Shown here: positions 553 through 49,921 of the stretch, in pieces
Layout: each line of letters opens with the position of its first letter
How positions within the stretch are numbered: the first letter of the stretch is position 1
NCBI GenBank assembly: GCA_013285995.1
Contig: JABDGN010000003.1
Coordinates: 5,317-69,316, forward strand
Origin: Gammaproteobacteria bacterium
Lineage (GTDB): Bacteria > Pseudomonadota > Gammaproteobacteria > JABDGN01
Length of the DNA: 64,000 bases
Direction of reading: 5' to 3'
Translations under genes and position numbers: made by a program
The notes under the pieces: model-generated
What the model was told of the DNA's origin: nothing
Seen by the model: the letters and a program-made list of their open reading frames with translations, nothing else
Database searches by the model: none

Positions 553-603
553 CATCCCCCTTTAAAAAAGGATCCCCCTTTGGTAAAGGGGGCAGGGGGA
601 TTT
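553..603. repeat. family D C5/G5 hairpin element (ccccctttaaaaaaggatccccctttggtaaagggggcaggggga)
   Basis: Same ...aaagggggcaggggga(tt) terminus as copies at 16261, 43633 and 49745. Abuts the stop codon of the 602..961 gene. Confidence 0.75.
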
Positions 604-961
604 ATTTTTCTTCAGCCATCATTCTTGCCGCCACGACAGTAGATTCATGTATCGCCAATAACGTCGCACCCGCATGAAAAGTCAAAAATCGCAAATCGTT
701 TTCTAAAATCAATGCGACTCCCTTGGCGTGAATCCCAATTTGTTTGGCAATCATGCTGATAGTGAATTGCCCCGTCGCTAAAATCTCGCCTAAAGTTATT
801 AACCAATTGACTTTGCCGTTCAGCAATTCATCACCGAGCCAGCATTGTGGGGTACTGCCGGGTTTGAATTCGGGGTGAACGGTTGAAGGTTTTGCGTCTG
901 CTTCGTAAACAATAGTCATTGAATTAATCACATCTATATTTTCAATTTCTGTAGTCATCAT
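602..961 (-). CDS. hypothetical protein (no confident family assignment)
   Basis: ORF 602..1000. An internal ATG at 961 is preceded by GGGAGA, so start placed there. Weak, unconvincing resemblance to the CinA C-terminal domain. Confidence 0.55.
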   Translation of the reverse strand: MMTTEIENIDVINSMTIVYEADAKPSTVHPEFKPGSTPQCWLGDELLNGKVNWLITLGEILATGQFTISMIAKQIGIHAKGVALILENDLRFLTFHAGATLLAIHESTVVAARMMAEEK

Positions 962-1188
962 TATTTCTCCCATTTTGTTTGGCGAGTTAAACACATACAA
1001 ATGTTTACTCTTGCTCTGGTTACCTTTTAGTTACACGTGTGTATGAGCACTTTGACACGGCATATATTTCTTCCTTGCTGGCAAGTAAAACATTGACATC
1101 CTTGAAATACCAGCTGATAATAATCAGTACTATTTATAATTTAAAATTATAGCAATAATTTTATGTGTTAATTTTGAACAGGTGGATT

Positions 1189-5825: not shown

Positions 5826-8800
5826 TCACGACGTGGTAGAAAGCAAGCTTTGGCAGTAGATGGAGGCGAAGGGCCACCAAAAGGCGAGCACGGGGGCGGT
5901 GGCGTTATCGCCGATGGCGGTGATGTTGGTGCCTTTGGTATTGTCCAGTTTGGTATTAACCATCCCCTTGAAGTTAAACAGTGCATTGGGATTATTTTGC
6001 TGAGGCCCTAAAATGCCGATATGAGTGTATACAGTATCCATATTGATGCAACCGATTAAGCCATTGGCAGTAAAATTATTGACATACGCATTTAAAAAAG
6101 CGCACCAGTTGCCGGGAGCTAAAGCGCGGTTATTGGGTGGTAAAGCTATGCCACCTAAATTAGGTGCCGAAATATTCGAAGGACAAATCGCGCCGAGGGA
6201 ACCTGTCGACCGGGTGCCGCCGCTGGTGCGGATAGTGCGACTGCTGCTAGCACTATCGCTGCTGCCGACCGTGGCCCAGCCAGCAGCTGCGCTGGTGAGC
6301 TCATTGAACGCGCTGGTGGCGTAGGCATAAGCGCTGCTGGTCGCTTGCATGGCGCTGGTGGCGGCATGGTAGGCTGAGCTTTGGAGGCTGCCGAGGGAGC
6401 TGGCGATTTGTTGCACCACAGTGGTGCCGCCACCTATTGGCTGCGTACTGGCCGCGGGGAGGGGGGCTGTACTTACCGGCACCACCGGCCCACTGGTCGG
6501 CGCCGCGCCGGCGGTGGCGCTGCCAAACAAGGTGCTGACTACACCCATAACCGCTTGATACGCCGTGCTCCCTGCAGCTTGTGCCGTTGTAATCGCCTGT
6601 TGCACCAGGCCCACATCGCCGCTGCTCAGTGCTGTGGTGGTCGCCTGAATAGATTGAGCGCTGTCAGAGGCCGATTGTCCGCTCAAAGAAAAAGACGTTT
6701 GCACTTCGTTAAGTTTGGTATTTAAAGTGCTGACGGCCGACACTTGCGCTGGCATTGTCCCTAAAGTGCTGCCGGCGGCCCGGATTGCGGCGGTGGTCCC
6801 GGCCCCGGTGCTGTCAACTGCTATATTATTGCTGGAGCCAAATTCCAACACGCCAGCCGCAATGGCCGTGCTTTGTTGGCCGAGGCTGCTCATAACAGCG
6901 CCCAAACTGCTGCCGAGTGCCGCGACCTGAGTGCTGCCAGCCCCCACTTGCTCGCTGGTTACTTGCGCATTGTTTAAACCTTGCTCTGCTGTACTGCCTG
7001 CTGCGTAATTACCGCTGCTTAATTCCATTTTTACGGTTGTTACCGCGGTGTCGGCTGACTTCCCGGTACTGACAGCGTTGCCGGTAATCGTACTGGAAGC
7101 CAGTCCGGTGGCCATGGCTGAGCTTGCCACGGCCAGGCCAGTTGCCGCCGTACTTTGAATGGCCGCCGTGGCGACGGCTTTTTGCGTGGAATTTAACACA
7201 CCGGTACCTTGAGTAGCCCCGCTGGAGCGTGCCAGGTGTTCACTTAAAACCGGCAACGTCGACACGGCGGATTGGATCGGCATTATGGATTGCGTTGTTG
7301 AGCTGATGAGCGCAGCAGTTGAGTCGCCCTTGCTTGAACCAGTGGCGGCCACGCCACCAGCCGAACTTTGTTGCGCAAGATTGACTCCGCTGCTTGCCGC
7401 GCCTATAGCGCTTTGTGATGATTGCAGCAACGCCTGGCTAGTAGAAAATACATTATTAGCGGCCGTCGATTGACGCGGACCCAAACCGCCGGTGGTGCCA
7501 CTACCACCGGTGCTTACACTCATGCGGGCGAGTTGCAAGCTGGTGCCGGCGTTGTTAATCATTGCGCCGGTGCTTTGGATCGCATTTTGCACCATTTCTG
7601 TCGAAACCACGCCGGGGCCAGTGCTTCCGACAGGTCCCGAGCTGCCTGCGGCCGGAGCACCGGCAGCGTCACTTGAAACTGCAGCGGGGCCAGTGCTTCC
7701 GGCAGGTCCCGAGCTGCCTGCGGCCGGAACGCCGACAGCGTCACTTGAAACTGCAGCGGGGCCAGTGCTTCCGGCAGGTCCCAAGTTGCCCACGGCCGAC
7801 GATCCAACCTCACTGCTGCCTGCACCACTCGTTCCGCTGCTTGCTGCCAGAGCGAAGCTGATACTCGCGGAGCTGGCAGCAAGCCAGGCGCTGCCGGTCG
7901 CTGCCGCTGTTTGCACCGCGACGATTTGTTGCGTGCTACCGCTTGGTTGCAGAGCCAGTGATGAAGCGTAAGATCGAAAACCCGTGACCAGGGCCGTCCA
8001 GGTAAGGGGTTGCAGCGTTGAAATCGGAACGCCCGAACTTCCCGAACTCCCCGGACTAACAACTCCTTCGGAACTTCCCAAACTGCCCGCGCTCGAGGCA
8101 ACCTGACTGGCGACAGTTGCGCTGGCCCCGGTAGAAACATCGGCCAGGCTAAGTGCGGTGTTAGTACTAGCCACAAAACGATTAGCTTGTGATGTGCGTT
8201 GTAAAGTGGCAAGTCCCGTCACCAACTGTTCGGTACTTAAATTAGGCGTGCCACGGCCGCTCGTGCTTCCCGAGCGCGCTAACACGAGTCCGCTGCTGCC
8301 CGTGGGTGGCGCGCCGGTATTTCCCGTGCGCACTAACACGGGTCCGCTGCTGTCGAATACTCCCGTGCTGTAGCTTGCGACGTGGGCTGCCAAAGCGCTG
8401 CTACTGCCAGCGGCAACTTGAATCGCCCGACTGCTTTGCGCTGCACCGGCACTGGTTGCCAAGGCACTGCTTAAGGCGGCAGCGGGCAGATTGCCGGTGC
8501 TGGCACTTTTTCCGGTACTTGATAAGATATTAGTTATAACAGACTGAGTTGAAACACTATTTTGTTCAATATTTTGCGCGGTACTGGCAATCATTTCGCT
8601 GCTGACTTGATTAGCTGTTGCGGCTGTGCTCACGGCTCCTGCCACGCCTGCCGCGCTGGACGCAGTATTTGCAATGGTAGTCGCATCATAAGGATTTTGG
8701 GCGAACGAGCTGCTGAGCGCATCGACTCCGGCGCTACTGGCAGAGCTGGCCTGGCTCGCTGCGCTGCTTGCTTCATGAGCGAAAGTAGAACCCCCCACGC

Positions 8801-11800
8801 CGGAGGCCGCGCCAAAGGCGAGGGAAGTTTCTAATACCGCACCGGCAGCTTGATGGGTCGTTGCCACTGCCACCGCACTGCTGGAAGGGGCATTGTCTGA
8901 GCTGGCAAAATTGCCGCTACTTCCTAAATTACTTTGTGTGGCCTTCGCCAGTGCCAGCGTGCTGCCTGGCAAGCCTGTGCCGCCGGTATTAGCCAATGCT
9001 GTTTGAGCACTCGTATAAGCTATGAAGGCAGTGCTTCTGGCTTGATTAGCAAGATCAGTCAATGCCGCAGCGGTGGCTATTTGTTCCGATGTTTGCGCGA
9101 GAATACTGGCGCTGGCAGCTGCACTGCTCGCGCGAGCAGCATCGCGCACAGCGGTACTGGCGCTTTGCAGGGCCAGAAATACATCACTCGTTGCGCCGGT
9201 ATTCATCAACACCGCTGCTGCTGTGCTGGCTCGCAATGATTCATGGGAAGTTTGTAAAGCCGTCGTACCCGCGCTGCCAAAATTAAGCGTTGGTACTACA
9301 CTTTGCAAAGTAGCCTCTGCCGTTTGCCCGGCCGCCACCGTGGGGTTGCCGGTGCTGAAGGCATTGCTTACGGTAATGACCGGCTCCATTGCAGTGGCAA
9401 GACTAGTCGCGAGCAGCGGAATTTGCGCGTGCGCGCTGGAAGCTTGCTGCACAATAGCTACACCGCTGCTCAAGCCTGGGCTTTGGCCCCCGCTAGTCGT
9501 TAATTGAGCTTGCAAACTGGTTTGGGCTTGATTTGCATCGCTTAAGAAGCTAGCGCTGCTTTGCACAATTTGTTGATTAGTGGTGTGGAGGGTCGTAGCG
9601 CTCGCGGCCATCGCCGCCGCCGAACTAATATTATTTCCCGTTCCATTAGCCCCGGTAGAACCGGCCACCGGTAGAGCGCCTCGCGTACTTACAGCCGGCG
9701 GCAACGGTATGCTGGCACTGCTGCCCGCAGCAAAACTAAGTACTGCCTGCAGAGTTTGGCTGGCAGTTAAAGCTAAATTAGCGCCACTGCTCGCATTTTG
9801 ATTTGCCAATACCAGGCTAGTGTAAGCGGTGCTGCTCGGGTGACTGCGCCCGGCATGTTGAAAAAAATAAGCGTTGGGATCGCCCGTTAATTCGCCGGTG
9901 CCCAAAGTTGCCAGCGCATTTTGCGCACTGCTATAAGCTGCTTGCGTGTTATAGAGGGCGGTAGAAAGATCGCCGCTTCGCAAAGCGTTACCCGCCGTAT
10001 TCAAATGGCTAAGCGCCGTGCTGGTATATTGATTACTGGTATCAATTTGCTGCAAGATAACTTGTTCGGTGGTAGATAAATCAGTTCCCGTGCTTTGCAA
10101 GTTAGCACTGCTTTGGGCTACGAAAGTGGCTGCTTGCTGGCTGCTTGCCAGCGCCCGTCCGGTACTGCTCAACACTTGATATTCTCTGCTGGTAGAAGCA
10201 TAGCCACCACTTGCCAGCTGGTTTTGTAAAGCCTCCCCTGTACTGTTAAGAGAGCTACCGATTTGAGTTGCCAAGGCTTTGGTACTGTCTGCCGAAGGAA
10301 TGGAATCACTACTGGTGAGTTTTAATGCGCCACTTAAACGTCCAAGGGTAGTTCCTTGTAATTCCAGGGAAATTGCAAAAGTGCTCAAGACTGTAGGTGA
10401 AATAAGACCGCTGCTGCTGCTAAGGCGCACTAAGTTAAGAGTTGCCAACAGGGACGTTACGCCACCCGTAATGGCTGCTGGTAAGGCGCTGCTACCGCTC
10501 GGGTTAACATCACTCGTGTTGTCGTTTCCATTACTGCTGCTACTGCTATGCAACATTTGTCGTAAAGTGCTGGCGGCCTGGCTGCTTTGTGCGGCAAAAG
10601 TTCCGCTCGGTACTTGACCGGTTTCTTCGGCACGCGCTGTACCCGCCAAACTATTCGCGATGGCAGTGCTTTGGTCTGCTAACGCGGAGGACGCCGCGAC
10701 GGGGACACTGCCGCCTGTGCCGGCAGATTGGGTGGCCTGGATGAGTGCGGCCTCAGTGGTTTTGATGCCACTTTGGAATTGGCTAATGCTTTGCTGAATC
10801 TCGTTGGTGACGGGGGAAGGGCCAGTGCTGCCAGTGGCCGAAAGAAACAGTTCGGGAAAAAAAGTGCTGGCGGTTTCGCTGGTGGCGGCCAGGCTTTCAG
10901 CAGCGATCCCAAGTGTAGTGGTAAAAATAGCCGTCGATAAATCTTTAGCGGAGTGTGCAGTTGCTTTAATGCTGGTACTGGTGTAGTCAGTGCTGTCAGC
11001 TTGCTCGCCAAGATCGCCGGTGAGGCGCCTACCAGCTTGTGTAGTGGGCGCACTGGCAGGAAAGGGTGATGGCGGCGGCGGTGATGGCGACGGCGGTGAT
11101 GGCGATGGGGGTGATGGCGGTGCCATACCATTGCCACTGGTTGGCGCAGCAGAAGTTGGTGCAGTATTATTGCCAGCAGCTGGCGGTGGTGGCGACGGGG
11201 GTGATGGCGGTGCCATACCATTGCCACTGTAACCTGCTTGGCTGGTTGGCGCAGCAGAAGTTGGTGCAGTATTATTGCCAGCAGCTGGCGGTGGTGGCGA
11301 TGGTGATGATGGCGGTGATGACGGCGGCGATGACGGCGGTGGACACCAATCTCCACCCCAACCTCCATGCCTGTTAACGCATTCATTGCCAATAATTGCC
11401 GCCGCTGGCAGCAGACATAGGAGCCAGCATAAATTCCACAGCTTTGGGTTACACGAGCGCGATTTCTTTTTTTGTGGAGCTGCACCCATTGTAGTTGCAG
11501 TTCCGGCGGCTCCCTTCCGGAAGTTTGCCATATAATCACGCACTTTCTGCGCCACCGTATTACCGGCGGCACTACCCATTGCAGTTGCAGTTCCCGTGGC
11601 TCCATCTGCAGTTCGCATGGCTTCATCCAGGAGCCTTACCATATGCTCACGCACTTGTTGATTCGCTACATCGGCGGCATTTGTTTGCCTAACAATAGGT
11701 TTTTTTTGCTTTAATTCTCTTTGTATATTAACCGCCCGATTCTTTGCTTGACTGGCATCCTTCAATAAAGCAGCTTTAAGCCCCTCAAGCGGGCGATAAT

Positions 11801-14060
11801 ACTCTGCTGGATAAAGTTGTTCAATTTTATCTCCTTGCATGCTAATAAAGGCCAATAGTGTATCGGCATCGGAAATATATTGCGCTGTACATTTTTCACA
11901 ACCGAGTTCTTGTAAAGTGGGAATGGCGACTCCTGTCGCCGTTTTTGTTTCTGCCAAGGTTTGTGCTAAAAGTGTTGCTGCATCAGCAGCTGTGCGTGGC
12001 GAAAGAGCAAATTGAATAGTGTGAGTTTGTTGCCAAGTCGACAATTGGCTATTTAGCCCGGCAAATTGACTGAGATACCCTTGAATATCATTGTCGATGG
12101 CCGTAAAACTCATGGGTGCAACCTTGGCCCAATTGGTTTTTTGCGTCGCAATATTCTCTGCGCTTTGTTTTATAGCCGCTGCAATCTTTTCTAGTTCTTC
12201 AAGTGGCGTGACAGCGTGCGATCCACTGGCAGCGGGACCTGCAGCATTTGCTTCGTCTGCGGGCGTTGTTCCCGCAATAGGTGGAAGCCGCACTCTGGCG
12301 AGATTTCCCCCTGCTATGGGCATTTCACCATTAGTTGGTGGGAACTGTGAATCGAGAGTAAAGCCTTCAGGGGGAAACGTTTGACCTTGGCTGGGTGCTA
12401 CGGCAGGAGATAATGCAGTGGGATCTGATATGCCCGCTGGGGTTCTGACAGTTCCTTCTTCTGGATAAATATTTTCTACTGGGGTTGGCGTTTGTGGAAA
12501 GAATTCTAGCGTTGCTGATGCAGCAGCGGGTTTAAGTACCGGACTGCGCCCATCGCCCAGATTGAGCGTCTCCCGTGGTGGCGGAGTTTGTGGAGATAAT
12601 TTGCGTGATGCTGGTACAGGAGTAGGCAAAAGCTTGGGTACTCCGCTCGGAGCTTTTTTCTCGCGCTGAGCTTTCAGAGCGAGCAATTTTTCTTGCTGTT
12701 GTTTAGTCTTGGCATACTTGCGCCAGGCTTGCGCGATAATTTTTTGTGCGGTATCTTCGTCCAATCTTCTGCCGCTAGTGTGCAGTCTCCCTGCAGCAGA
12801 GCCTGGTTGCGGAGGAAGTGTGCGGGGCGAGTTCTCTGGAGGGTTTTGTGTGGGATCTCCTTCCAATCTTCTGTTGCTAGTGTGAAATCTCCCTGCAGCA
12901 GAGCCTGGTTGCGGAGGAAGTGTACGGGGCGAGTTATTTGGAGAGTTTTGTGTGGGATCTCCTTCCAATCTTCTGTTGCTAGTGTGAAATCTACCTGCAC
13001 CAGGGTCTGATTGCTCTGATTGCAGAGGAGGTGTGCGGGGCGACTTATCTGGAGGGTTTTGTGTGAGATCCACCTCCGGTTTTTTAGTGCTAATGTGAAG
13101 TCTTGGGTTATGGCGAAGAAGACCGTCATCTAACCTGATTTCAAAGGGTTCATCGTCGACTCCTTGGGGTCGAATTTCTTTTTTTCGCCCGCTGGGGTTT
13201 TTACCCGCAGGATTTCCTGTTTTTGTGTTTCCCAGCTTGTGGGCAAATACACGAGTGGCATCCTCATCCCCGTTAGACTCTTCTCCATCCAAGGCGTTAG
13301 CTGCAGCAGCAGCAGCTTCTTCTTCTGCTTTTTTTCGCTTTGCTTCTTCTTCTGCTTTTTTTCGCTTTTCTTGCTCCTCCGCTTCGAGATTTTGCTGACG
13401 TAATTTTTCTTGCAAATTTCTTATCGTAGCCTGGCTTTTAAAGCCACCGGGTGCAGCGCCGGGATTGACTAAAGTCATAGCACCGGAGCGCAGCATTTCC
13501 CTATGAGCAGGAGGCAAATTTCCACTACGAGTGGGAATGGGGCTTGCTGGTGGGGCTCCTGAGCGTGCTACCTCCAGATAACTGGGCGCTTTTGGCGGCG
13601 GCGAAGCTGACGGAGACACATTTGGCGGTGGCGAAGGGGGTGGAGACACATTTGGTGGCGATACCGTGGGCGGCGAATCACCAGGCGAAGAATTGCTTGA
13701 GGTAGGACTCACACCACTAAGGTGAGGTGCGGCGGAACCAGACGGAATAGGAAGTGGGGCTGAAGTTGAAGTAAGTCTCTTTTTTTGTGCAGCAATATAT
13801 TCCAAAGCCCCCGCAAGATCCGGTGCGCGGGCGTTTGAGGCGTTTGGCAGTACCGCTCCAAGATCCGGTGCGGGGGCGTTTGAGTCGCTTGGCAGTACGG
13901 CGGGAGCGGGAGCAGGCTTAAGGCCAAAATGATTGCTGGGCTTGAAAATATTCCGGGTGTTACTCGGCAGTACCCGAGTTGGCTGTGTGCTACTCGGCGG
14001 TACCCGAGGCCGTACCTGAACCCCGGGGTCTGGACCAACTCTGCCGCCACGATCTAACAT
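5826..14060 (-). CDS. giant 2744-aa low-complexity repeat protein (P-rich N-terminal region, central TM-like segment, about 1500-aa S/T/A/G/Q-rich region, Cys-containing C-terminal domain)
   Basis: Uninterrupted 8.2 kb ORF. GC content is far above neighbouring genes. Contains about 105-bp tandem repeats (approx 12760..13080) and roughly 100-bp PPSPP-coding direct repeats (approx 11100..11330). A hydrophobic stretch LWNLCWLLCLLPAAAIIG lies at approx 11385..11445. Confidence 0.8.
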   Translation of the reverse strand: MLDRGGRVGPDPGVQVRPRVPPSSTQPTRVLPSNTRNIFKPSNHFGLKPAPAPAVLPSDSNAPAPDLGAVLPNASNARAPDLAGALEYIAAQKKRLTSTSAPLPIPSGSAAPHLSGVSPTSSNSSPGDSPPTVSPPNVSPPPSPPPNVSPSASPPPKAPSYLEVARSGAPPASPIPTRSGNLPPAHREMLRSGAMTLVNPGAAPGGFKSQATIRNLQEKLRQQNLEAEEQEKRKKAEEEAKRKKAEEEAAAAAANALDGEESNGDEDATRVFAHKLGNTKTGNPAGKNPSGRKKEIRPQGVDDEPFEIRLDDGLLRHNPRLHISTKKPEVDLTQNPPDKSPRTPPLQSEQSDPGAGRFHTSNRRLEGDPTQNSPNNSPRTLPPQPGSAAGRFHTSNRRLEGDPTQNPPENSPRTLPPQPGSAAGRLHTSGRRLDEDTAQKIIAQAWRKYAKTKQQQEKLLALKAQREKKAPSGVPKLLPTPVPASRKLSPQTPPPRETLNLGDGRSPVLKPAAASATLEFFPQTPTPVENIYPEEGTVRTPAGISDPTALSPAVAPSQGQTFPPEGFTLDSQFPPTNGEMPIAGGNLARVRLPPIAGTTPADEANAAGPAASGSHAVTPLEELEKIAAAIKQSAENIATQKTNWAKVAPMSFTAIDNDIQGYLSQFAGLNSQLSTWQQTHTIQFALSPRTAADAATLLAQTLAETKTATGVAIPTLQELGCEKCTAQYISDADTLLAFISMQGDKIEQLYPAEYYRPLEGLKAALLKDASQAKNRAVNIQRELKQKKPIVRQTNAADVANQQVREHMVRLLDEAMRTADGATGTATAMGSAAGNTVAQKVRDYMANFRKGAAGTATTMGAAPQKKKSRSCNPKLWNLCWLLCLLPAAAIIGNECVNRHGGWGGDWCPPPSSPPSSPPSSPSPPPPAAGNNTAPTSAAPTSQAGYSGNGMAPPSPPSPPPPAAGNNTAPTSAAPTSGNGMAPPSPPSPSPPSPSPPPPSPFPASAPTTQAGRRLTGDLGEQADSTDYTSTSIKATAHSAKDLSTAIFTTTLGIAAESLAATSETASTFFPELFLSATGSTGPSPVTNEIQQSISQFQSGIKTTEAALIQATQSAGTGGSVPVAASSALADQSTAIANSLAGTARAEETGQVPSGTFAAQSSQAASTLRQMLHSSSSSNGNDNTSDVNPSGSSALPAAITGGVTSLLATLNLVRLSSSSGLISPTVLSTFAISLELQGTTLGRLSGALKLTSSDSIPSADSTKALATQIGSSLNSTGEALQNQLASGGYASTSREYQVLSSTGRALASSQQAATFVAQSSANLQSTGTDLSTTEQVILQQIDTSNQYTSTALSHLNTAGNALRSGDLSTALYNTQAAYSSAQNALATLGTGELTGDPNAYFFQHAGRSHPSSTAYTSLVLANQNASSGANLALTASQTLQAVLSFAAGSSASIPLPPAVSTRGALPVAGSTGANGTGNNISSAAAMAASATTLHTTNQQIVQSSASFLSDANQAQTSLQAQLTTSGGQSPGLSSGVAIVQQASSAHAQIPLLATSLATAMEPVITVSNAFSTGNPTVAAGQTAEATLQSVVPTLNFGSAGTTALQTSHESLRASTAAAVLMNTGATSDVFLALQSASTAVRDAARASSAAASASILAQTSEQIATAAALTDLANQARSTAFIAYTSAQTALANTGGTGLPGSTLALAKATQSNLGSSGNFASSDNAPSSSAVAVATTHQAAGAVLETSLAFGAASGVGGSTFAHEASSAASQASSASSAGVDALSSSFAQNPYDATTIANTASSAAGVAGAVSTAATANQVSSEMIASTAQNIEQNSVSTQSVITNILSSTGKSASTGNLPAAALSSALATSAGAAQSSRAIQVAAGSSSALAAHVASYSTGVFDSSGPVLVRTGNTGAPPTGSSGLVLARSGSTSGRGTPNLSTEQLVTGLATLQRTSQANRFVASTNTALSLADVSTGASATVASQVASSAGSLGSSEGVVSPGSSGSSGVPISTLQPLTWTALVTGFRSYASSLALQPSGSTQQIVAVQTAAATGSAWLAASSASISFALAASSGTSGAGSSEVGSSAVGNLGPAGSTGPAAVSSDAVGVPAAGSSGPAGSTGPAAVSSDAAGAPAAGSSGPVGSTGPGVVSTEMVQNAIQSTGAMINNAGTSLQLARMSVSTGGSGTTGGLGPRQSTAANNVFSTSQALLQSSQSAIGAASSGVNLAQQSSAGGVAATGSSKGDSTAALISSTTQSIMPIQSAVSTLPVLSEHLARSSGATQGTGVLNSTQKAVATAAIQSTAATGLAVASSAMATGLASSTITGNAVSTGKSADTAVTTVKMELSSGNYAAGSTAEQGLNNAQVTSEQVGAGSTQVAALGSSLGAVMSSLGQQSTAIAAGVLEFGSSNNIAVDSTGAGTTAAIRAAGSTLGTMPAQVSAVSTLNTKLNEVQTSFSLSGQSASDSAQSIQATTTALSSGDVGLVQQAITTAQAAGSTAYQAVMGVVSTLFGSATAGAAPTSGPVVPVSTAPLPAASTQPIGGGTTVVQQIASSLGSLQSSAYHAATSAMQATSSAYAYATSAFNELTSAAAGWATVGSSDSASSSRTIRTSGGTRSTGSLGAICPSNISAPNLGGIALPPNNRALAPGNWCAFLNAYVNNFTANGLIGCINMDTVYTHIGILGPQQNNPNALFNFKGMVNTKLDNTKGTNITAIGDNATAPVLAFWWPFASIYCQSLLSTTS

Positions 14061-16257: not shown

Positions 16258-16260
16258 AAA

Positions 16261-16341
16261 ATCCCCCTTAGTCCCCCTTTTTCAAAGGGGGAAATCAAAA
16301 CAGCAGAATCCCCCCTTTGAAAAAGGGGGGCAGGGGGGATT
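16261..16341. repeat. family D hairpin element (two C5-loop-G5 hairpins ending ggggggcaggggggatt)
   Basis: Sits between convergent ddl and udk. Probably a bidirectional terminator. Confidence 0.75.
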
Positions 16342-16968
16342 TCAAGCGTTCAACAACATCTCTTTCATTTGCGCTTTAATCACATCGATCGCAATGCGAT
16401 TTTTACCGCCATGCGGCACGATAATGTCAGCATAACGTTTGCAGGGTTCAATAAATTGTTGGTACATAGGCCGCACCGTGTTTTCATATTGTTCTAACAC
16501 GGAATCTAAATCGCGACCCCGTTCTTTCACATCGCGCTTTAAACGCCGCAACAAGCACATATCGAGCGGGGTATCCATAAAAATACCGATGTCTAACAGT
16601 TCGCGTACTTTTGCTTCCACCAATAACAAAATGCCTTCTAACACGATAATCGCATGCTGCCCAATTTCACGGGTTTTATCGCTGCGTGTGTGTAAGCTGT
16701 AATCATAAACCGGCACTTGCACATTGCGGCCACCTTGCAATTGCTGCAATTGTTGACACAGTAATTCATGATCAAACGCATCGGGGTGGTCGTAATTGAT
16801 TTTTTGCCGTTGTTCTAAGGATAAATGTGAACGGTCTTTGTAATAAGAATCTTCCGAAATAATGACGACTTGATTAGAGCCTAACTCTTCCACAATGGTA
16901 CGGGCTAATAAACTTTTACCGGAGGCGGAAGGTCCGGCGATACCAATGATGATAGGTTGTTTATGCAT
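16342..16968 (-). CDS. udk: uridine kinase
   Basis: [17 protein letters not shown]-loop and Udk family sequence. 208 aa. Confidence 0.93.
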
Positions 16969-34079: not shown

Positions 34080-34181
34080 GTAGGTCGGCTTCCCGCGTTT
34101 CATTTTAATGAAACGCGCAAGCCGACAGCCAATGTCGGCTTACTCACCTCGCGTTACGCGAGGTTCGGGAAGCCGACCTAC
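34080..34181. repeat. family B compound palindromic element (gtaggtcggcttcc...ggaagccgacctac), BIME-like
   Basis: About 100 bp with outer and two inner hairpins. Five copies in the window. Confidence 0.8.
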
Positions 34182-38303: not shown

Positions 38304-38576
38304 GTGAATAAAGCAGAATTAATTGACAATATTGCTGCAAAAGCGGATTTATCAAAAGCCGATGCAGGTCGCGCCTTAGATGCCGTTTTGGAAAGCATTA
38401 CCGAATCTTTAAAAAGCGGTACCGACGTTGCCTTAGTAGGGTTTGGCACTTTTCATGTAAAAAAACGTGCCGCGCGCAAAGGACGCAATCCGAAAACGGG
38501 CGCAGAGATCGAAATCAAAGCCGCCAATGTACCGGATTTTAAAGCCGGGAAGGCGTTGAAAGACGCAGTTAATTGA
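38304..38576 (+). CDS. hupB: DNA-binding protein HU-beta
   Basis: GTG start giving (M)[35 protein letters not shown]...GFGTF..RNPKTG. Confidence 0.88.
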
Positions 38577-38712
38577 GTTGTGAGTTGTGGGTTGTCAGTT
38601 GTGAGAGAATTTAGTTGTGAGTTGTGAGTTGTGAGAAAAAGCAAAATCTTTTTTCTTATAAATGTTTCTTGCGATACACAGTCATGAGATCTCACAACTC
38701 ATGCCTCACAAC
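38577..38712. repeat. short tandem GTTGTGAG/CTCACAAC repeat array forming an inverted-repeat structure
   Basis: gagttgtgagttgtgggttgtcagttgtgag...agttgtgagttgtgagttgtgag and the reverse tctcacaactcatgcctcacaact. Lies between hupB and tRNA-Val. Confidence 0.7.
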
Positions 38713-38721
38713 TAATATTGC

Positions 38722-38797
38722 GGGTGCTTAGCTCAGTTGGTAGAGCATCGCCCTTACAAGGCGAGGGTCGGGGGTTCGAACCCCTCAGCACCCACCA
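38722..38797 (+). tRNA. tRNA-Val (anticodon TAC), CCA encoded
   Basis: gggtgcttagctcagttggtagagc...cTTACAa...ggttcgaac...agcacccacca. Confidence 0.9.
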
Positions 38798-38799
38798 TT

Positions 38800-38880
38800 T
38801 ATTAAGTTGTGGGTTGTGGGTTGTCAGTTGTGAGTAAATTATCTCACAACTCATGCCTCACAACTCACAGCTAATATCCA
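38800..38880. repeat. short tandem GTTGTGGG/GTTGTGAG repeat with inverted copy
   Basis: ttaagttgtgggttgtgggttgtcagttgtgagtaaattatctcacaactcatgcctcacaactcacag. Second copy of the structure that flanks tRNA-Val. Confidence 0.7.
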
Positions 38881-38882
38881 GC

Positions 38883-38959
38883 GGAGTGGTAGTTCAGCTG
38901 GTTAGAATACCGGCCTGTCACGCCGGGGGTCGCGGGTTCGAACCCCGTCCACTCCGCCA
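38883..38959 (+). tRNA. tRNA-Asp (anticodon GTC), CCA encoded
   Basis: ggagtggtagttcagctggttagaataccggcctGTCacgccgggggtcgcgggttcgaaccccgtccactccgcca. Confidence 0.9.
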
Positions 38960-41113: not shown

Positions 41114-42424
41114 TCATCCTCTCACTTGCAGCTTTTCCCCCACCTGCAACGGCTTCCGCGGATTTAATTGATTCAAACTTACTAACTGTTTCACACTCAT
41201 CTTATGCCGTTCGGCAATGCCCGACAGCGTATCACCCGCTTTCACCCGATAAACTACTGTCCCTCCCAAACCAGGTTCGCGCTCATGCATCAAGAAATTA
41301 CGCGAGGTAGCGTGAGCACTGACCGGTGGGGGAGACGTGGGCACTAACAACACTTGGCCGGTATGCAATTTATCGGTGACCAATTGATTACTAGCGCGAA
41401 TTAAATCAATTGTAGTGTGGTAACGTTGGGCCACTTTTTCGATGGTGTCATGGCGTTTTACTGTGTAATTTTGCCATTTAATATTATTTAATTCAGCGAT
41501 GCCATCGGTGAATTGTTGCTCTTGAGCGGCGGGTACCACGATGTGATAGGTATGATTCGGTGCGCTGGCAGAGCGATTAAAGCCAGGATTTAATTGATAA
41601 AACTCCTGCATACTGATGCCAGCTAATTGGGCGGCTTCAGTCAAATCAATTTGCGAATGCACGGTTACAAAGGCTAAATAAGGTTTATCCGGCGTAGCAG
41701 GCCAATCAATCGGGTACTTTTTCTGATCTTGCAAAATAATCGCCAAAGCTAGTAATTTAGGCACATATTGCCGGGTTTGTTCGGGCAAACGCAAATCCCA
41801 AAAGTCGGTCGGCAAGCCGCGTGCTGAATTGCGAGCAATCGCATTTTGCACGGTCCCTTCACCGGCGTTATAAGCGGCAATCGCTAAATACCAATCGCCA
41901 TTAAAATATTGTTTTAAGTAAGCTAAGTAATCCAGCGCTGCTTGCGTGGAAGCAAAAATATCACGTCTTCCGTCGTACCACCAATCACGTTTTACTTTGT
42001 AATAACTGGCTGTACCGGGTAAAAATTGCCATAAACCGGAAGCACCTGAAGGCGAGTGCGCATAAGGATTGTAAGCACTTTCGACAATCGGCAATAAGGC
42101 TAATTCGCCGGGCATATTACGCGTTTTAACTTGCTGTTGGATATAATAAATATAGGGGCTGCCACGGGTGGCGGAATGGACCAGGAAATCCTGATGCGAC
42201 ATATACCAATCAATTTGCGCTTGAACTTCGGAACGATTAGCATATTCATTCAGTGAAAAATTTTTATCTAAAACGCGCCATATATTCGTTTCAGTTTCAC
42301 CCGTTGTAGGATTTACAAACTCGGGCGAAGGTTGGCTAGCATGCCCAAACGGCATAAAAGAAGTGCTGCTGCTGCAAGCAGAAAGACTTAAAGCGATAAT
42401 GACGGCTAAGGCTAATTTTTTCAC
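41114..42424 (-). CDS. mltD: membrane-bound lytic murein transglycosylase D-like lipoprotein with LysM domains
   Basis: Lipobox LSAC. SLT domain ES..NP.A.S..GA.GLWQF. C-terminal LysM repeats (YTVKRHDTIEKVA, YRVKAGDTLSGIA). Confidence 0.85.
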   Translation of the reverse strand: MKKLALAVIIALSLSACSSSTSFMPFGHASQPSPEFVNPTTGETETNIWRVLDKNFSLNEYANRSEVQAQIDWYMSHQDFLVHSATRGSPYIYYIQQQVKTRNMPGELALLPIVESAYNPYAHSPSGASGLWQFLPGTASYYKVKRDWWYDGRRDIFASTQAALDYLAYLKQYFNGDWYLAIAAYNAGEGTVQNAIARNSARGLPTDFWDLRLPEQTRQYVPKLLALAIILQDQKKYPIDWPATPDKPYLAFVTVHSQIDLTEAAQLAGISMQEFYQLNPGFNRSASAPNHTYHIVVPAAQEQQFTDGIAELNNIKWQNYTVKRHDTIEKVAQRYHTTIDLIRASNQLVTDKLHTGQVLLVPTSPPPVSAHATSRNFLMHEREPGLGGTVVYRVKAGDTLSGIAERHKMSVKQLVSLNQLNPRKPLQVGEKLQVRG

Positions 42425-42534
42425 TCGCGCATGGTACGGTGATGGGCGCTGAAAATCAAGTAGTAATTGAATTGATTTCTTTCAAAACTCTAGGGTTTTA
42501 CAAGAAACCTAGAATTTTAAGGTATACTAACACG

Positions 42535-43194
42535 ATGCAACTTTTCAATGATCATTATCATGGCTTTCTTAACTGGTTGGCAACGCCCACCGGACGTCGG
42601 TTTTTGGACCTTGAATTAGCGCAGTTTATCAAGCCTATGCAAGGCAGCCATGGCAATCAATTATTATTAATTGGTAATGCTGTTTTTCATCCCTTGCTCA
42701 AAGAGGGATGTTTTGCGAATACCCATGCTATTGGCCTCAATCAGTTAAAGAAAAAGTTACCTTATCCGGATGAGAAATTTGACTGCATTATCTTGCCGCA
42801 TGTTTTAGAGTTTGTGGCCGAACCGGAACTCATTGTGAAAGAAATGCAACGACTTTTATATCCCGAAGGAAGTCTATTGATCAGCGGTTTTTATCCACGC
42901 AGTTTTTCCCGTTTACTGCACAACTTCACGACGAGTAAACCGAAGCGCCATGATCGCGCTGCTGCAATACCGGTACGCAATTTAACTAAACAATTGCAAG
43001 CCATTGAGTTAGAAGAGATTCAATGTACGGCTTTTGCGCTTGGAAAATGGTATCGGTATTTGCCACTTTTTCCAACGGCCTATGTCATTAAAGCTGCTGA
43101 ACGCCGCGAAGGGCTTACGCCTTTGCGGAGTCGTGCACAAATTATTAAGCCGCGTTTTGCTACTGGCACAAGTCTCGCCTATGAAAAAAGTTGA
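42535..43194 (+). CDS. SAM-dependent methyltransferase, YafS-like
   Basis: Sits at the position E. coli yafS occupies between mltD and rnhA. ORF opens at 42439; start placed at [11 protein letters not shown]. Confidence 0.65.
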
Positions 43195-43663
43195 AATTTT
43201 TACTGATGGTGCCTGCCAAGGTAATCCTGGGCCCGGCGGCTGGGGCGCGATTTTACGTTATGGTGAAACGGAAAAAGAATTATCCGGTGCTGTTTCTGAC
43301 ACTACCAATAATCGCATGGAGTTAACGGCTGCGATTGAAGCACTCAAGGCTTTAAAAAAACCGTGCGAAGTGAGCTTAAGCACTGATTCGAAATACGTAC
43401 AAGAGGGTATCCAAAAGTATATTCACAACTGGAAAAAAAATGGTTGGAAAACAGCTAATAAAAATGCCGTTAAAAATGCCGATTTATGGCAACAGCTTGA
43501 TGCAGTCGCTAGTCAACATGCAGTACAGTGGCATTGGGTGAAAGGGCATAATGGGCATCTGGAAAATGAACGGGCGGATCAATTGGCGGTGCAGGCAGTA
43601 AAAAATATGCTAAATAAAAATCCCCCCTGCCCCCCTTTTCCAAAGGGGGGATCTCTTATTTGA
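43181..43663 (+). CDS. rnhA: ribonuclease HI
   Basis: [25 protein letters not shown]...[14 protein letters not shown]...[16 protein letters not shown]. The last 14 codons ([14 protein letters not shown]) and the stop lie inside the family D repeat. Confidence 0.85.
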
Positions 43664-43850
43664 TTTCCCCCTTTTCCAAAGGGGGGATCTCTTATTTGAT
43701 TTCCCCCTTTTCCAGAGGGGGGATCTCTTATTTGATTTCCCCCTTTTCCAAAGGGGGGATCTCTTATTTGATTTCCCCCTTTTCCAAAGGGGGGATCTCT
43801 TATTTGATTTCCCCCTTTGAAAAAGGGGGATTAAGGGGGATTTAAGAAAT
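43633..43850. repeat. family D tandem array: about 5.5 copies of a 36-bp unit (cccccttttccaaaggggggatctcttatttgattt)
   Basis: Direct perfect repeats, each with a C5-TTTTCCAAA-G6 hairpin. Fills the whole rnhA-dnaQ spacer. The ORF track's 61-aa reading ([12 protein letters not shown] x5) is a translation artifact. Confidence 0.9.
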
Positions 43851-43855
43851 TAATT

Positions 43856-44542
43856 ATGTCACGACAAATTGTACTAGATACCGAAACCACCGGCCTTGAA
43901 CCCTCGAAAGGCCATCGCATCGTGGAAATTGGGTGCATTGAAATTATCAATCGCCAAATCACCGAGCGTTATTTTCATCACTATCTTAATCCCGAACGCG
44001 CCATTGAAGCCGGCGCACAAATGGTGCATGGCATTACCGATGACTTACTAAAAGATAAACCTAAATTCAGCGAAATCATTGATGAGTTATTAGCCTTTAT
44101 AAAAGATGCCGAAGTGATTATCCACAATGCACCGTTTGATGTAGGATTTTTGAATCACGAACTCAAACTCAGCAAACGCAAATTAGGCGTAATCACAGAT
44201 TATTGTCGTGTCACCGACACATTAGCCATGGCGCGCGAAATGCACCCGGGGCAGCGCAATAATTTGGATGCTTTGTGCAAGCGTTATGGAGTGGATAATT
44301 CCAATCGCGATTTGCATGGTGGTTTGCTGGATGCTGAATTACTTGCTTTAACTTATTTGGCGATGACTTCCGGGCAAGATAGTTTGTTTGCGGAACTGGA
44401 AGTGAATGATAAACCCACTGCGGCTGAAACACGTGTGACAACTAGCGTTAACAATGCTTTGCCAGTGTTGGCTGCGAACGCTGAAGAATTAACCGCGCAT
44501 AGCGATATTATGCAGCGCTTAGTGAAAGCGGACCTGTGGTGA
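43856..44542 (+). CDS. dnaQ: DNA polymerase III subunit epsilon (3'-5' proofreading exonuclease)
   Basis: Exo I VLDTETTG, Exo II, Exo III HGGLLDAELLA. Confidence 0.92.
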   Translation: MSRQIVLDTETTGLEPSKGHRIVEIGCIEIINRQITERYFHHYLNPERAIEAGAQMVHGITDDLLKDKPKFSEIIDELLAFIKDAEVIIHNAPFDVGFLNHELKLSKRKLGVITDYCRVTDTLAMAREMHPGQRNNLDALCKRYGVDNSNRDLHGGLLDAELLALTYLAMTSGQDSLFAELEVNDKPTAAETRVTTSVNNALPVLAANAEELTAHSDIMQRLVKADLW

Positions 44543-44562
44543 TTTCGTCATCACTTGGTAAT

Positions 44563-44665
44563 GTAGGTCGGCTTCCCGAGTTTCGCTTTAGCGAAGCGAG
44601 TAAGCCGACATTATGTGTCGGCTTGTTCATCTCGCCTTACGGCGAAACTCCGGAAGCCGACCTAC
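44563..44665. repeat. family B compound palindromic element
   Basis: gtaggtcggcttcccgagtttcgctttagcgaagcgagtaagccgac...ggcgaaactccggaagccgacctac. Confidence 0.8.
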
Positions 44666-45111
44666 GCTGCATCTCCAATTGCCTCCAACACTTCCTCCAC
44701 ATGTCCTGTGACCTTGACATTGCGCCATTCTTTGATGAGCTTACCCCCTTTAAATAAAAACGTACTGCGATCGACGCCTAAATATTCTTTGCCATAAAGC
44801 TTTTTCATTTTCATCACCTCAAAATGCTGACAAAGTTTTTCTTCCGGGTCGCTGATCAGCGCAAAGGGAAACTCAAACTGACATTTAAATTTATCGTGTG
44901 ATTTGAGACTGTCACGCGATACGCCATAGACGCTCGCACCTAATTTGCTAAATTTTTTAAAATGCTTGGCAAAATCCTGGCCTTCTAAGGTACAGCCTGG
45001 CGTATTATCTTTGGGGTAAAAATATACGACCAAATAAGGGGTTTCAACTTCGCTGAGTTTGACTTCGCCTTGTGTAGTAGATAAAGTAAAGTCAGGTAAT
45101 TTTTTGTTCAT
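44662..45111 (-). CDS. bcp: thiol peroxidase Bcp (peroxiredoxin)
   Basis: VVYFYPKDNTPGCTLEGQDF peroxidatic Cys motif. 149 aa. Confidence 0.88.
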   Translation of the reverse strand: MNKKLPDFTLSTTQGEVKLSEVETPYLVVYFYPKDNTPGCTLEGQDFAKHFKKFSKLGASVYGVSRDSLKSHDKFKCQFEFPFALISDPEEKLCQHFEVMKMKKLYGKEYLGVDRSTFLFKGGKLIKEWRNVKVTGHVEEVLEAIGDAA

Positions 45112-45142
45112 TTAACGTTGTCCTATTTAGTTAAGAACTCCG

Positions 45143-45249
45143 TCGTCATTCCCGCCCCCGTCTTCACGAGGGTAAACTCCAGCGGGAATCCAGAAATAAA
45201 GTAAACAATTTGAATTAAAGGCTGGATCCCCGCTTTCGCGGGGATGACG
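45143..45249. repeat. family C MITE-like element (variant with ttcacgagggtaaactcc core)
   Basis: cgtcattcccgcccccgtcttcacgagggtaaactccagcgggaatccag...ggatccccgctttcgcggggatgacgg. Confidence 0.75.
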
Positions 45250-46203: not shown

Positions 46204-46336
46204 CGTCATCCCGGAAATTGCCCCCGTTTTCACGAGGGTAAACTCCGCAATTATCCGGGATCCAGGTATTATCCCCGCGAAAGCGGGGACCCAGCATTAA
46301 AAAATGCCTGGATTCCCGCCTTCGCGGGAATGACGT
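46204..46336. repeat. family C MITE-like compound element
   Basis: cgtcatcccggaaattgcccccgttttcacgagggtaaactccgcaattatccgggatccag...ctggattcccgccttcgcgggaatgacg. Contains two nested inverted-repeat modules. Confidence 0.75.
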
Positions 46337-48973: not shown

Positions 48974-49734
48974 TATTTTGGCGCGCTAAGCCAGCGGGGC
49001 AAGCTAAATTACGAACCGAAAGTGGCGTGCAATATTTTTTACGACGCTTAAAAAAAATTTGTTTATGGCTGCTTGCTTTACTGATTTTAATTTTTATCAT
49101 CAGTAGTTATATTTATTTACATCGCCCCAGCACTTTACCAATTAAAACGATTCAAGTGCTCGGGGAATACAGTCACATTGATAATCGGACGGTGGAAAAT
49201 ATTGTTTTACCTGATGTGCAAAATGGCTTGCTCAACTTAAATTTAAGCACCTTGCAGCAGGCTCTCTTGCAATTGCCTTGGCTAGAGCGAGTCGAGATTC
49301 GCAAAATTTGGCCCGACACGATTGTTATTTATTTATATCAACAGGTGCCGGTAGCCTATTGGAATGAGAAAAGTTTATTGAACGATACGGGCGTCATTTT
49401 CACGCCACCGCACTTGAAAGATTTACCAGCCGATTTACCGTATTTTAATGGACCTGATTCGCAAAGCGCAGCGATGCTGGCCGCTTATCGCGATATGACT
49501 CAACGTTTGCAGCCTTTGGGTTTGTCAGTGCTTGCGATCAATTTAAGTCAGCGTCATGCGTGGACAGTTACTTTAAGTAACGGTATTATTTTAATTTTAG
49601 GTCGGGAAGATTTTGCGGATCGTTTGCAACGGTTTATTACGGTGTATCCGAATGTTTTAAGTGCCAAAGCGGGTCGGGTGCAGAGTGTCGACCTGCGATA
49701 TAATAGTGGATTGGCTGTTGAGTGGAAACGGTGA
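48970..49734 (+). CDS. ftsQ: cell division protein FtsQ
   Basis: Single TM ICLWLLALLILIFIISSYIYL, then a POTRA-like region (IQVLGEY...LPWLERVEIRKIWPDTIVIYLYQQVPVAYWN). Confidence 0.8.
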   Translation: MIFWRAKPAGQAKLRTESGVQYFLRRLKKICLWLLALLILIFIISSYIYLHRPSTLPIKTIQVLGEYSHIDNRTVENIVLPDVQNGLLNLNLSTLQQALLQLPWLERVEIRKIWPDTIVIYLYQQVPVAYWNEKSLLNDTGVIFTPPHLKDLPADLPYFNGPDSQSAAMLAAYRDMTQRLQPLGLSVLAINLSQRHAWTVTLSNGIILILGREDFADRLQRFITVYPNVLSAKAGRVQSVDLRYNSGLAVEWKR

Positions 49735-49744
49735 AAAATCCCCC

Positions 49745-49878
49745 TTAATCCCCCTTTTTCAAAGGGGGAAATCCTTCATTCAATTTATTGCATGAATCCC
49801 CCCTTTTTCAAAGGGGGAAATCCTTCATTCAATTTATTGCATGAATCCCTCCTTTGAAAAAGGGGGGCAGGGGGGATT
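49745..49878. repeat. family D tandem hairpin repeat (about 46-bp unit x 2.5, ending ggggggcaggggggattt)
   Basis: tcccccttaatccccctttttcaaagggggaaatccttcattcaatttattgcatgaa repeated. Directly after the ftsQ stop. Confidence 0.85.
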
Positions 49879-49921
49879 TAAAATTTTCAAATTTTGAAAA
49901 ATAAAATTTAAAGGTATCAAA

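Follow-up and report, generated by a model that had tools for sequence, protein, structure and literature searches.

What occupies the space between rnhA and dnaQ, the genes of RNase HI and the epsilon subunit of DNA polymerase III, in a gammaproteobacterial genome (GenBank assembly GCA_013285995.1, contig JABDGN010000003.1), and how did it get there? In the analyzed stretch of 64,000 nucleotides (64 kb, further referred to as the window) the two genes are separated by a tandem array of hairpins, which a first-pass annotation made from the sequence alone described as a hairpin minisatellite filling the rnhA-dnaQ spacer. Tandem Repeats Finder (TRF) agrees with this description (Table 1). The array is, however, not a stand-alone minisatellite, but the amplified core of a composite 228-bp element with two unlike ends. 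With a probability of about 0.6, it would be the core of a small dispersed repeat with class II triplex-motif ends, amplified internally by slippage and having no dedicated function.

According to TRF, the array has a period of 36 and 5.5 copies, with 96% matches and no indels, and a repeat search places six copies in register, spaced 36 nt. Each unit comprises a hairpin, CCCCCTTT-TCC-AAAGGGGG(G), followed by the spacer ATCTCTTATTTGATTT. The copy number of about 5.5 given in the first-pass annotation is confirmed, but the copies are not perfect, as unit 3 carries an A>G substitution at 43715 and the loop of the sixth hairpin (43811-43829) has the reversed sense (TTTGAAAAA). The hairpin of each unit had been recognized as well, although its stem, formerly given as C5/G6, should be corrected to 8-9 bp with a 3-nt loop (−7.5 kcal/mol as DNA and about −12.5 as RNA). 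The 20-nt hairpin core has 15 matches in the window, compared with 0.01 expected. Repeat-derived sequence extends to 43843 (GGGGGATTT), and the sequence next to the dnaQ start is indeed repeat, as previously stated; the distance to the dnaQ ATG at 43856, however, is equal to 12 nt rather than 6 nt.

On the + strand, the whole element at this locus (E3) consists of an A-type end, five hairpins each followed by a 16-nt spacer, a sixth hairpin, and a B-type end. Its left end reads AAATCCCCCC-TG-CCCCCC and its right end GGGGG-ATTAA-GGGGGATTT. The A-type end contains, in this order, a pyrimidine arm, a loop, a purine arm, a linker, and a reverse-Hoogsteen arm; the B-type end holds a 10-bp direct duplication (AAGGGGGATT x 2, TRF row 43823-43842). 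Four elements of the window (E0-E3) are flanked by these two unlike ends, with E3 in the orientation opposite to E1 and E2; each of the three intact elements combines one end that has a CA linker with one that has an ATTAA/ACTAA linker. In its basic form the element contains two hairpins of 19-20 nt, which are near-identical, lie in direct register, and are 16 nt apart. Spacers in the window elements are 16, 18, and 29 nt long, and in the amplified copies the period is the sum of one hairpin and one spacer (36 = 20 + 16 and 49 = 20 + 29).

All copies in the window border closely on gene ends. E1 takes up precisely the stretch that separates the convergent stops of ddl (ends 16257) and udk (ends 16342), and as single-stranded DNA it folds with −31.4 kcal/mol (z = −6.6). 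E2 begins directly past the stop of the upstream open reading frame (ORF), which ends at 49734, and the A-type end of the decayed E0 overlaps the ORF 602-1000 (minus strand) at its stop codon. This ORF context agrees with the earlier observation that the repeat, called family D, is dispersed at gene 3' ends (553, 16261, 49745). These loci were also said to always share one ending, which holds for 16325 and 49862, where GGGGGGCAGGGGGGATT is exact, but not for 587, where it is degenerate; a further exact copy is found in E3 itself at 43619 (minus strand).

Table 1. Coordinates of the features at the rnhA-dnaQ locus and of the family-D elements in the window
Feature	Position	Strand	Description and evidence
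rnhA (RNase HI), 160 aa	43181..43663	+	Pfam RNase_H 5e-53, residues 2-140; PDB 1rbr on residues 1-142
rnhA stop TGA	43661..43663	+	within unit 1 spacer; ORF table, sequence
dnaQ (DNA polymerase III epsilon), 228 aa	43856..44542	+	Pfam RNase_T 4e-37; homologues align from residues 1-3
Tandem array, 36 bp x 5.5	43631..43829	+	TRF, repeat search, folding
Whole family-D element E3, 228 bp	43616..43843	-	sequence, repeat anatomy, comparison with E1/E2
A-type end of E3	43618..43650	-	class II motif CCCCCCTTT-GGA-AAAGGGGGG-CA-GGGGGGATTT; ITxF-like scan, stem 10, one bad triad
B-type end of E3	43810..43843	+	class II motif TCCCCCTTT-GAA-AAAGGGGG-ATTAA-GGGGGATTT; stem 10, one bad triad
Element E1	16259..16343	+	B-type end, hairpin, 18-nt spacer, hairpin, A-type end; unamplified
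Element E2	49736..49880	+	E1-like two ends; core = 49-bp unit x 2.4 (hairpin + 29-nt spacer)
Element E0, decayed	553..603	+	first hairpin degenerate, A-type end intact

As for the ends, both match class II intrastrand triplex motifs, the studied example of which is BoxC/PIT/TMECO of E. coli (Holder et al. 2015, PMC4666352). Under the ITxF definition of Holder et al. (2015), such a motif lies on one strand and has the order 5'-pyrimidine arm, loop, purine arm, loop, reverse-Hoogsteen arm-3'; the allowed triads are C-G·G, T-A·A, or T-A·T, with a stem of 6-15 triads, at most 1 mismatch, and loops of 1-6 nt. The ITxF-like scan applied here follows published criteria (stem of at least 8, at most 1 bad triad, loops 1-6, and at least 50% G/C). 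Class II motifs of the BoxC/PIT type are reportedly also described by Hoyne et al. (2000). In the window the scan yields exactly 7 matches, all of them element ends, with stems of 8-10, 0-1 bad triads, and loops of 1-3. Its application to 30 Markov simulations gives 0 matches, and as a positive control the same scanner finds the two BoxC motifs paired at hrpB-mrcB in E. coli. When the G-rich strand is considered, comparison of GGGGGATT with reversed AAAGGGGG results in eight legal purine-motif triads (G·G-C, A·A-T, and T·A-T).

A third strand that pairs with the purine strand requires a mirror repeat. Mirror repeats are no product of templated copying, and they are meaningless to dimeric proteins binding double-stranded DNA. 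Among the family halves with a substitution in the inner arm, taken from other contigs, 17 fit the mirror pattern only, 0 the direct pattern only, and 6 are ambiguous (7 different variant cores). In one of the mirror examples the outer arm TCTCCCC and the linker AA are followed by the inner arm CCCCTCTTT, a loop, and AAAGAGGGG. Across 2000 permutations of the test, the mean is 1.8 and the maximum is 6, with none reaching the observed 17. In two-hairpin elements (e.g., L126) the variant half is internally consistent, and its complementarity to the other half is lost. Because templated copying cannot yield a mirror pattern, the way in which the third arm co-varies points toward selection for a fold of three strands. 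For the ends, triplex formation is predicted from this evolutionary pattern, together with in-vitro data on the E. coli relative, which forms a stable triplex as single-stranded DNA (PMC4666352). Co-variation of the third with the purine arm of triplex motifs was not found in PMC4666352.

The first-pass annotation also suggested G-quadruplex potential of the array, which is not confirmed: no G3+N1-7 or N1-12 motif is present in or near the array on either strand. The G-runs in the array are 30 nt apart, each beside a complementary C-run, and only two-tetrad (G2) quadruplex matches are reported, located at the element ends. The non-B structure of relevance would be the triplex at the ends.

The array has most likely been expanded by replication slippage between two near-identical hairpins, since its period is equal to hairpin plus spacer and the same type of amplification recurs in E2 and in two family loci outside the window (L153 and L128). 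Additional support comes from E. coli, where BoxC/PIT/TMECO elements block DNA polymerase in vitro and their loci are hypervariable among strains, with replication slippage proposed as the cause (PMC4666352). In the proposed scenario, the folded single strand would stall the replication fork, slipped-strand mispairing between hairpins would then duplicate one hairpin and one spacer (36 bp), and further slippage would lead to 5.5 copies.

Alternatively, the copy number, though not the repeat itself, might be an assembly artefact, i.e., the array of about 200 bp might have been collapsed or mis-threaded by short k-mers. The independent Logan assembly SRR8422337 is interrupted within the array at 43814 and a second time at another repeat (45173). 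Its contig L001 (1.4 kb, the only exact-protein match for DnaQ) is 100% identical to the window over 43814-45173, and the first 30 nt of this contig also match E2. Since this only other assembly of the strain breaks inside the array, the copy number rests on one assembly. The window contig, however, reads through the array, has a unique junction at either side of it, and shows a single-base variant in unit 3, and the RnhA frame and stop are coherent; an artefact of this kind is considered unlikely. Assemblers should expect contig breaks at such elements. The other break of L001 corresponds to a separate short repeat with copies at about 45140-45175 and 46205-46240 (..cccgcccccgtcttcacgagg.., ..ttgcccccgttttcacgagg..), the first of which is where the contig ends.

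Regarding the insertion site, the rnhA-dnaQ spacer in 45 relatives with both genes on the same strand has a median length of 1 nt (0 or less in 22 of the 45, maximum 154), compared with 192 in the window. Because the two genes are contiguous or overlapping in relatives, the element is an insertion at the 3' end of rnhA, displacing its native stop and parting it from dnaQ. Both genes are firmly identified (Table 1). E. coli RNase HI (PDB 1rbr) aligns to RnhA residues 1-142, and RNase HI of relatives ends a median of 5 residues past the position aligned to 142, whereas here 18 more residues follow. The element starts at codon 146, so residues from K146/N147 on are element-encoded, and the last 13-15 residues together with the stop codon are repeat-encoded. 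This corresponds well to the earlier notion that the rnhA frame enters the repeat and obtains its C-terminus and stop from it, with TGA found in the unit 1 spacer. Given the element start and the usual length of the protein in relatives, the repeat-encoded tail is located outside the conserved fold; the overlap of rnhA with the element is limited to the last codons.

The rnhA-dnaQ junction is colonised repeatedly by small repeats. BoxC-like class II motifs occur in this spacer in two related Burkholderiales metagenome-assembled genomes (MAGs), one motif in L033 (173-205) and two in L035 (2062-2185), which are about 88% identical in the flanks. Triplex-type repeats are thus present at this junction in two unrelated lineages, namely this gammaproteobacterium and Burkholderiales. 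In the closest gammaproteobacterial MAG (L002) the spacer contains a GTAG REPIN at 857-1016. In total, 619 kb of dnaQ loci hold three class II motifs, two of them in the rnhA-dnaQ spacer, which is suggestive, yet these two probably represent one event by descent.

If the array has no dedicated function, its effects would be by-products of the insertion and expansion: a 13-15-residue repeat-encoded tail of RNase HI beyond the folded domain, lost translational coupling between rnhA and dnaQ, and a string of stable hairpins in read-through mRNA, possibly attenuating or stabilising it. The same hairpins might instead act as partial terminators or 3' stabilisers in the rnhA-dnaQ transcript, and the array may be kept for this effect, with dnaQ lowered relative to rnhA, the rnhA message protected, and the two cistrons uncoupled. 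Sense-strand units indeed account for 9 of the 11 loose terminator-consensus matches in 42300-44800 (2.9 expected), and the array RNA has a folding energy of −130 kcal/mol (z = −7). No sense-strand sigma-70-like promoter is predicted for dnaQ, which makes read-through from rnhA likely. Across the family, outer ends abut stop codons of long ORFs in 12.7% of cases (base rate 1.3%) and are located at most 12 nt before a long-ORF ATG in 8.7% (base rate 3.6%). The U-tracts, however, are interrupted, with tail scores of 1.4-2.3 (trpA terminator: 4.7) and negative d-scores throughout; other copies of the family have no U-rich tails in one or both orientations, and E. coli PIT elements show no promoter or terminator activity (PMC4666352). 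An RNA element maintained for its effect seems unlikely, while as a side effect the array may attenuate rnhA read-through.

As for the suggestion that this is a contingency locus, slippage would alter the number of units and thereby dnaQ expression and, hence, the mutation rate. Tandem units this close to perfect are prone to slippage, related genomes of another lineage differ in the same spacer (L033 has 1 triplex motif and L035 has 2), and the hypervariability of triplex-motif loci in E. coli mentioned above (PMC4666352) fits this suggestion as well. However, the absence of a predicted sense-strand promoter leaves no spacing that the array could tune, and from the G-run of the B-type end to the dnaQ ATG the distance is 16 nt, i.e., beyond standard Shine-Dalgarno reach. 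Moreover, the 36-bp unit is unlike the classic 1-8 bp repeats of phase variation, and the same family expands at loci unrelated to mutation rate (E2 and L153). Such a role is considered very unlikely. The element parts two replication-fidelity genes that are normally translationally coupled, which implies a testable effect on dnaQ expression.

An array of 5.5 x 36 nt upstream of a gene also resembles the RNA antitoxin of type III toxin-antitoxin systems, as ToxI consists of 5.5 repeats of 36 nt. This resemblance is a numerical coincidence only. The downstream gene encodes a DnaQ-type exonuclease homologue (Pfam RNase_T 4e-37) and no ToxN/AbiQ endoribonuclease, and the units are simple hairpins of a dispersed family with no Rfam match above threshold. 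The chance of such a system is practically negligible, and a ToxIN-like array is ruled out by the identity of the downstream gene. At the Rfam gathering threshold only four tRNAs pass in the window, the region 43400-44000 gives sub-threshold hairpin noise, and neither the gathering nor the E-value mode yields a family for the repeat.

Among known repeats, the element resembles BoxC/PIT/TMECO of E. coli and other Proteobacteria (PIT, potential intrastrand triplex), which are multi-copy, intergenic, and arranged as inverted pairs that always join an A-type and a B-type motif (PMC4666352). Both have G/C-rich class II motifs on one strand in multiple intergenic copies, often near gene ends, and inverted pairs that always combine two motif types; in both, arms are conserved and loops are variable, and the E. 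coli hrpB-mrcB motifs are also 16 nt apart. Core amplification and insertion in a coding 3'-end or in frame are not described in PMC4666352. The arms themselves differ, being C5-6TTT/AAAG5-6 here and CCCTCNCCC/GGGNGAGGG there, and the TMECO pattern CCCTCNCCC N3-6 GGGNGAGGG N3 GGGNGAGGG has 0 matches in the window. In addition, with Y and R denoting the pyrimidine and purine arms and H or RH the third arm, third arms point inward in the E. coli pair, [Y-R-RH]-16 nt-[H-Y-R], but outward in family D, [H-Y-R]-spacer-[Y-R-RH]. The element thus represents a known kind of repeat in a new sequence and a new architecture. What appeared to be a locus-specific minisatellite becomes a member of the widespread, barely studied class of intrastrand triplex motifs.

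Other repeat systems also resemble the element in part. BOX of Streptococcus pneumoniae (boxA-boxB(n)-boxC) has two different end modules and variable tandem central modules. It is likewise a modular, hairpin-forming, small intergenic repeat, but it is regarded as unrelated in sequence and is not known to carry mirror ends of the triplex type. Rickettsia palindromic elements (RPE) are palindromic repeats of about 100-150 bp that may lie in frame within genes, where they add peptides, and they occur in one lineage. Similarly, peptide segments are added here, namely the RnhA tail and a portal-protein peptide in Glaesserella, whereas RPE are longer, restricted to a single lineage, and unrelated in sequence.

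REP/REPIN sequences, which RAYT transposases mobilise, are likewise intergenic, short, and hairpin-forming; they lie at the 3' ends of genes and are arranged in inverted doublets. Family D, in contrast, has no GTAG/GNAG head, since its ends begin with AAATC, and the mirror repeat is absent from REPs. No RAYT gene was seen in the window, though no systematic search was aimed at RAYT. The window does contain GTAG-headed REPs of its own. One family (GTAGGTCGGCTT...AAGCCGAC) forms five inverted doublets at 34080/34181, 38096/38205, 41002/41105, 44563/44665, and 47955/48074, which are classical REPIN-like, with 44563-44665 located directly downstream of dnaQ. Copies of the second (GTAGGGGCGGCTCGYGAGCCGCCC), partly in inverted doublets, are found at 524, 15125, 17003/17052, 38990, 47687/47736, and 53266/53315, and one copy adjoins the decayed family-D element at 553.

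Outside the window, the family was collected with the pattern AATCCCCC N2-5 CCCCCTTT NNN AAAGGGGG, which has 24 specified bases. It is common in metagenomes and phages, with at least 120 matching stretches in JGI metagenomes and at least 120 in IMG/VR viral contigs (at least 240 contigs); GC content of the family contigs ranges from 31 to 72% among the matches listed. Prophage loci named by exact-protein look-up belong to Candidatus Jettenia caeni (Planctomycetota), Glaesserella parasuis, Pasteurella multocida, Muribacter muris, and Psychrobacter lutiphocae. The elements occur as single halves (outer arm, linker, and hairpin), as palindromic monomers of 41-51 nt, and as two-hairpin elements that carry the two unlike ends known from the window (e.g., in Jettenia, L281). 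Tandem arrays are rare (L153, 32 bp x 5.7, and L128, 36 x 2). Two features that the search pattern did not prescribe are conserved all the same: the base before AAT is almost always A, and in 52 non-matching halves ATTT follows the outer G-run. BLAST with a 45-nt monomer gave no match in plasmids and phages, probably owing to masking of the query by the low-complexity filter, and a literature search with literal repeat sequence strings returned nothing relevant.

Only 31% of family elements lie in open frames, compared with 74% for random positions. A half-element is nevertheless found in frame in the Mu-like portal gene (DUF935/gp29) of Glaesserella parasuis prophages (L219, position 7274 on the minus strand, L207, and L253), where it encodes ..KSPLAPLFQRGE.. 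and adds the in-frame peptide SPLAPLFQRGE. Since the family expands its core, inserts into coding 3' ends, and sits in frame in the portal gene, annotators should expect repeat-encoded protein tails. An identical half-element is present between the tail sheath and tube genes in P2-like prophages of Glaesserella parasuis. In one lineage (L085, L089, L112, L151, L178, L195, and L200) a larger repeat, about 200 bp long and with inverted ends CGTAACACTTTAGCSCTTTGAAAA, encloses the two-hairpin element; the larger repeat is inserted upstream of different genes.

Given that the family is present in Planctomycetota, Gammaproteobacteria, and their prophages, one might also imagine a truly mobile, phage-borne element that crosses phyla and has mirror-repeat ends which an enzyme would read as a folded single-stranded triplex. 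The occurrence of triplex-type repeats at the rnhA-dnaQ junction in two unrelated lineages would then be no coincidence, and either the folded element or its copy number would determine how much RNase HI is made relative to the proofreading subunit, as a heritable and reversible modulator of replication fidelity. Such a combination is regarded as highly improbable. The use of G arms as Shine-Dalgarno sequences and of C arms as mimics of the 16S rRNA 3'-end was rejected, since many of the apparent starts are TTG artefacts of the ATTTG end. Ribosome-binding use of the ends is opportunistic in phages and not a general role (8.7% when only ATG is counted). Complementary co-variation of the linkers in palindromic monomers is not general, as many linkers form internal loops. 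Another candidate was the motif GGGCAGGG, which is present in the A-type ends at 587-603, 16325-16341, and 49862-49878 (+) and at 43619-43635 (−), i.e., on the G-rich (+) strand in 3 of 4 cases. It fits the FtsK-orienting KOPS consensus GGGNAGGG; this resemblance is probably incidental, because linkers vary widely across the family.

Several observations weigh against the slippage-expanded core of a dispersed triplex-ended repeat. Internal units of the array have no third arm, so the array itself consists of hairpins only. In the E. coli relative, a triplex was found neither in double-stranded DNA nor by in-vivo dimethyl sulfate (DMS) footprinting (PMC4666352), which leaves triplex folding in cells unproven. 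The slippage origin is inferred from geometry, and there is neither a second strain nor a sampled close relative of the organism (the nearest DnaQ is 61% identical in GTDB genomes and 63-65% among 5.8 billion proteins), so copy-number change is unseen; the RnhA protein is not on record in the exact-protein look-up. As for mobility, no transposase is enriched within 2.5 kb of the approximately 240 listed loci, where ORF clustering reveals phage structural genes only, and no consistent target-site duplication flanks E1-E3; inverted ends of 9-10 nt (AAATCCCCC...GGGGGATTT) are present, and a miniature inverted-repeat transposable element (MITE) would combine such terminal repeats with a target-site duplication and a related parent element encoding a transposase. 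Finally, the five sense-strand hairpins with U-rich tails could represent a selected attenuator rather than a neutral by-product.

Among other repeats of the window, heptamer tandem repeats at 38574-38635 and 38806-38869 (TGAGTTG x 8.6; GTTGTGG and CTCACAA x 3.9) flank the tRNA genes at 38722-38794 and 38883-38956. Positions 5826-14060 on the minus strand comprise a single ORF of 2,744 aa with no Pfam match, which fills an island of 55-59% GC in a genome of about 43% GC and contains long internal tandem repeats of 72 bp x 2.6 at 7613-7798 and 102 bp x 3.1 at 12742-13070.

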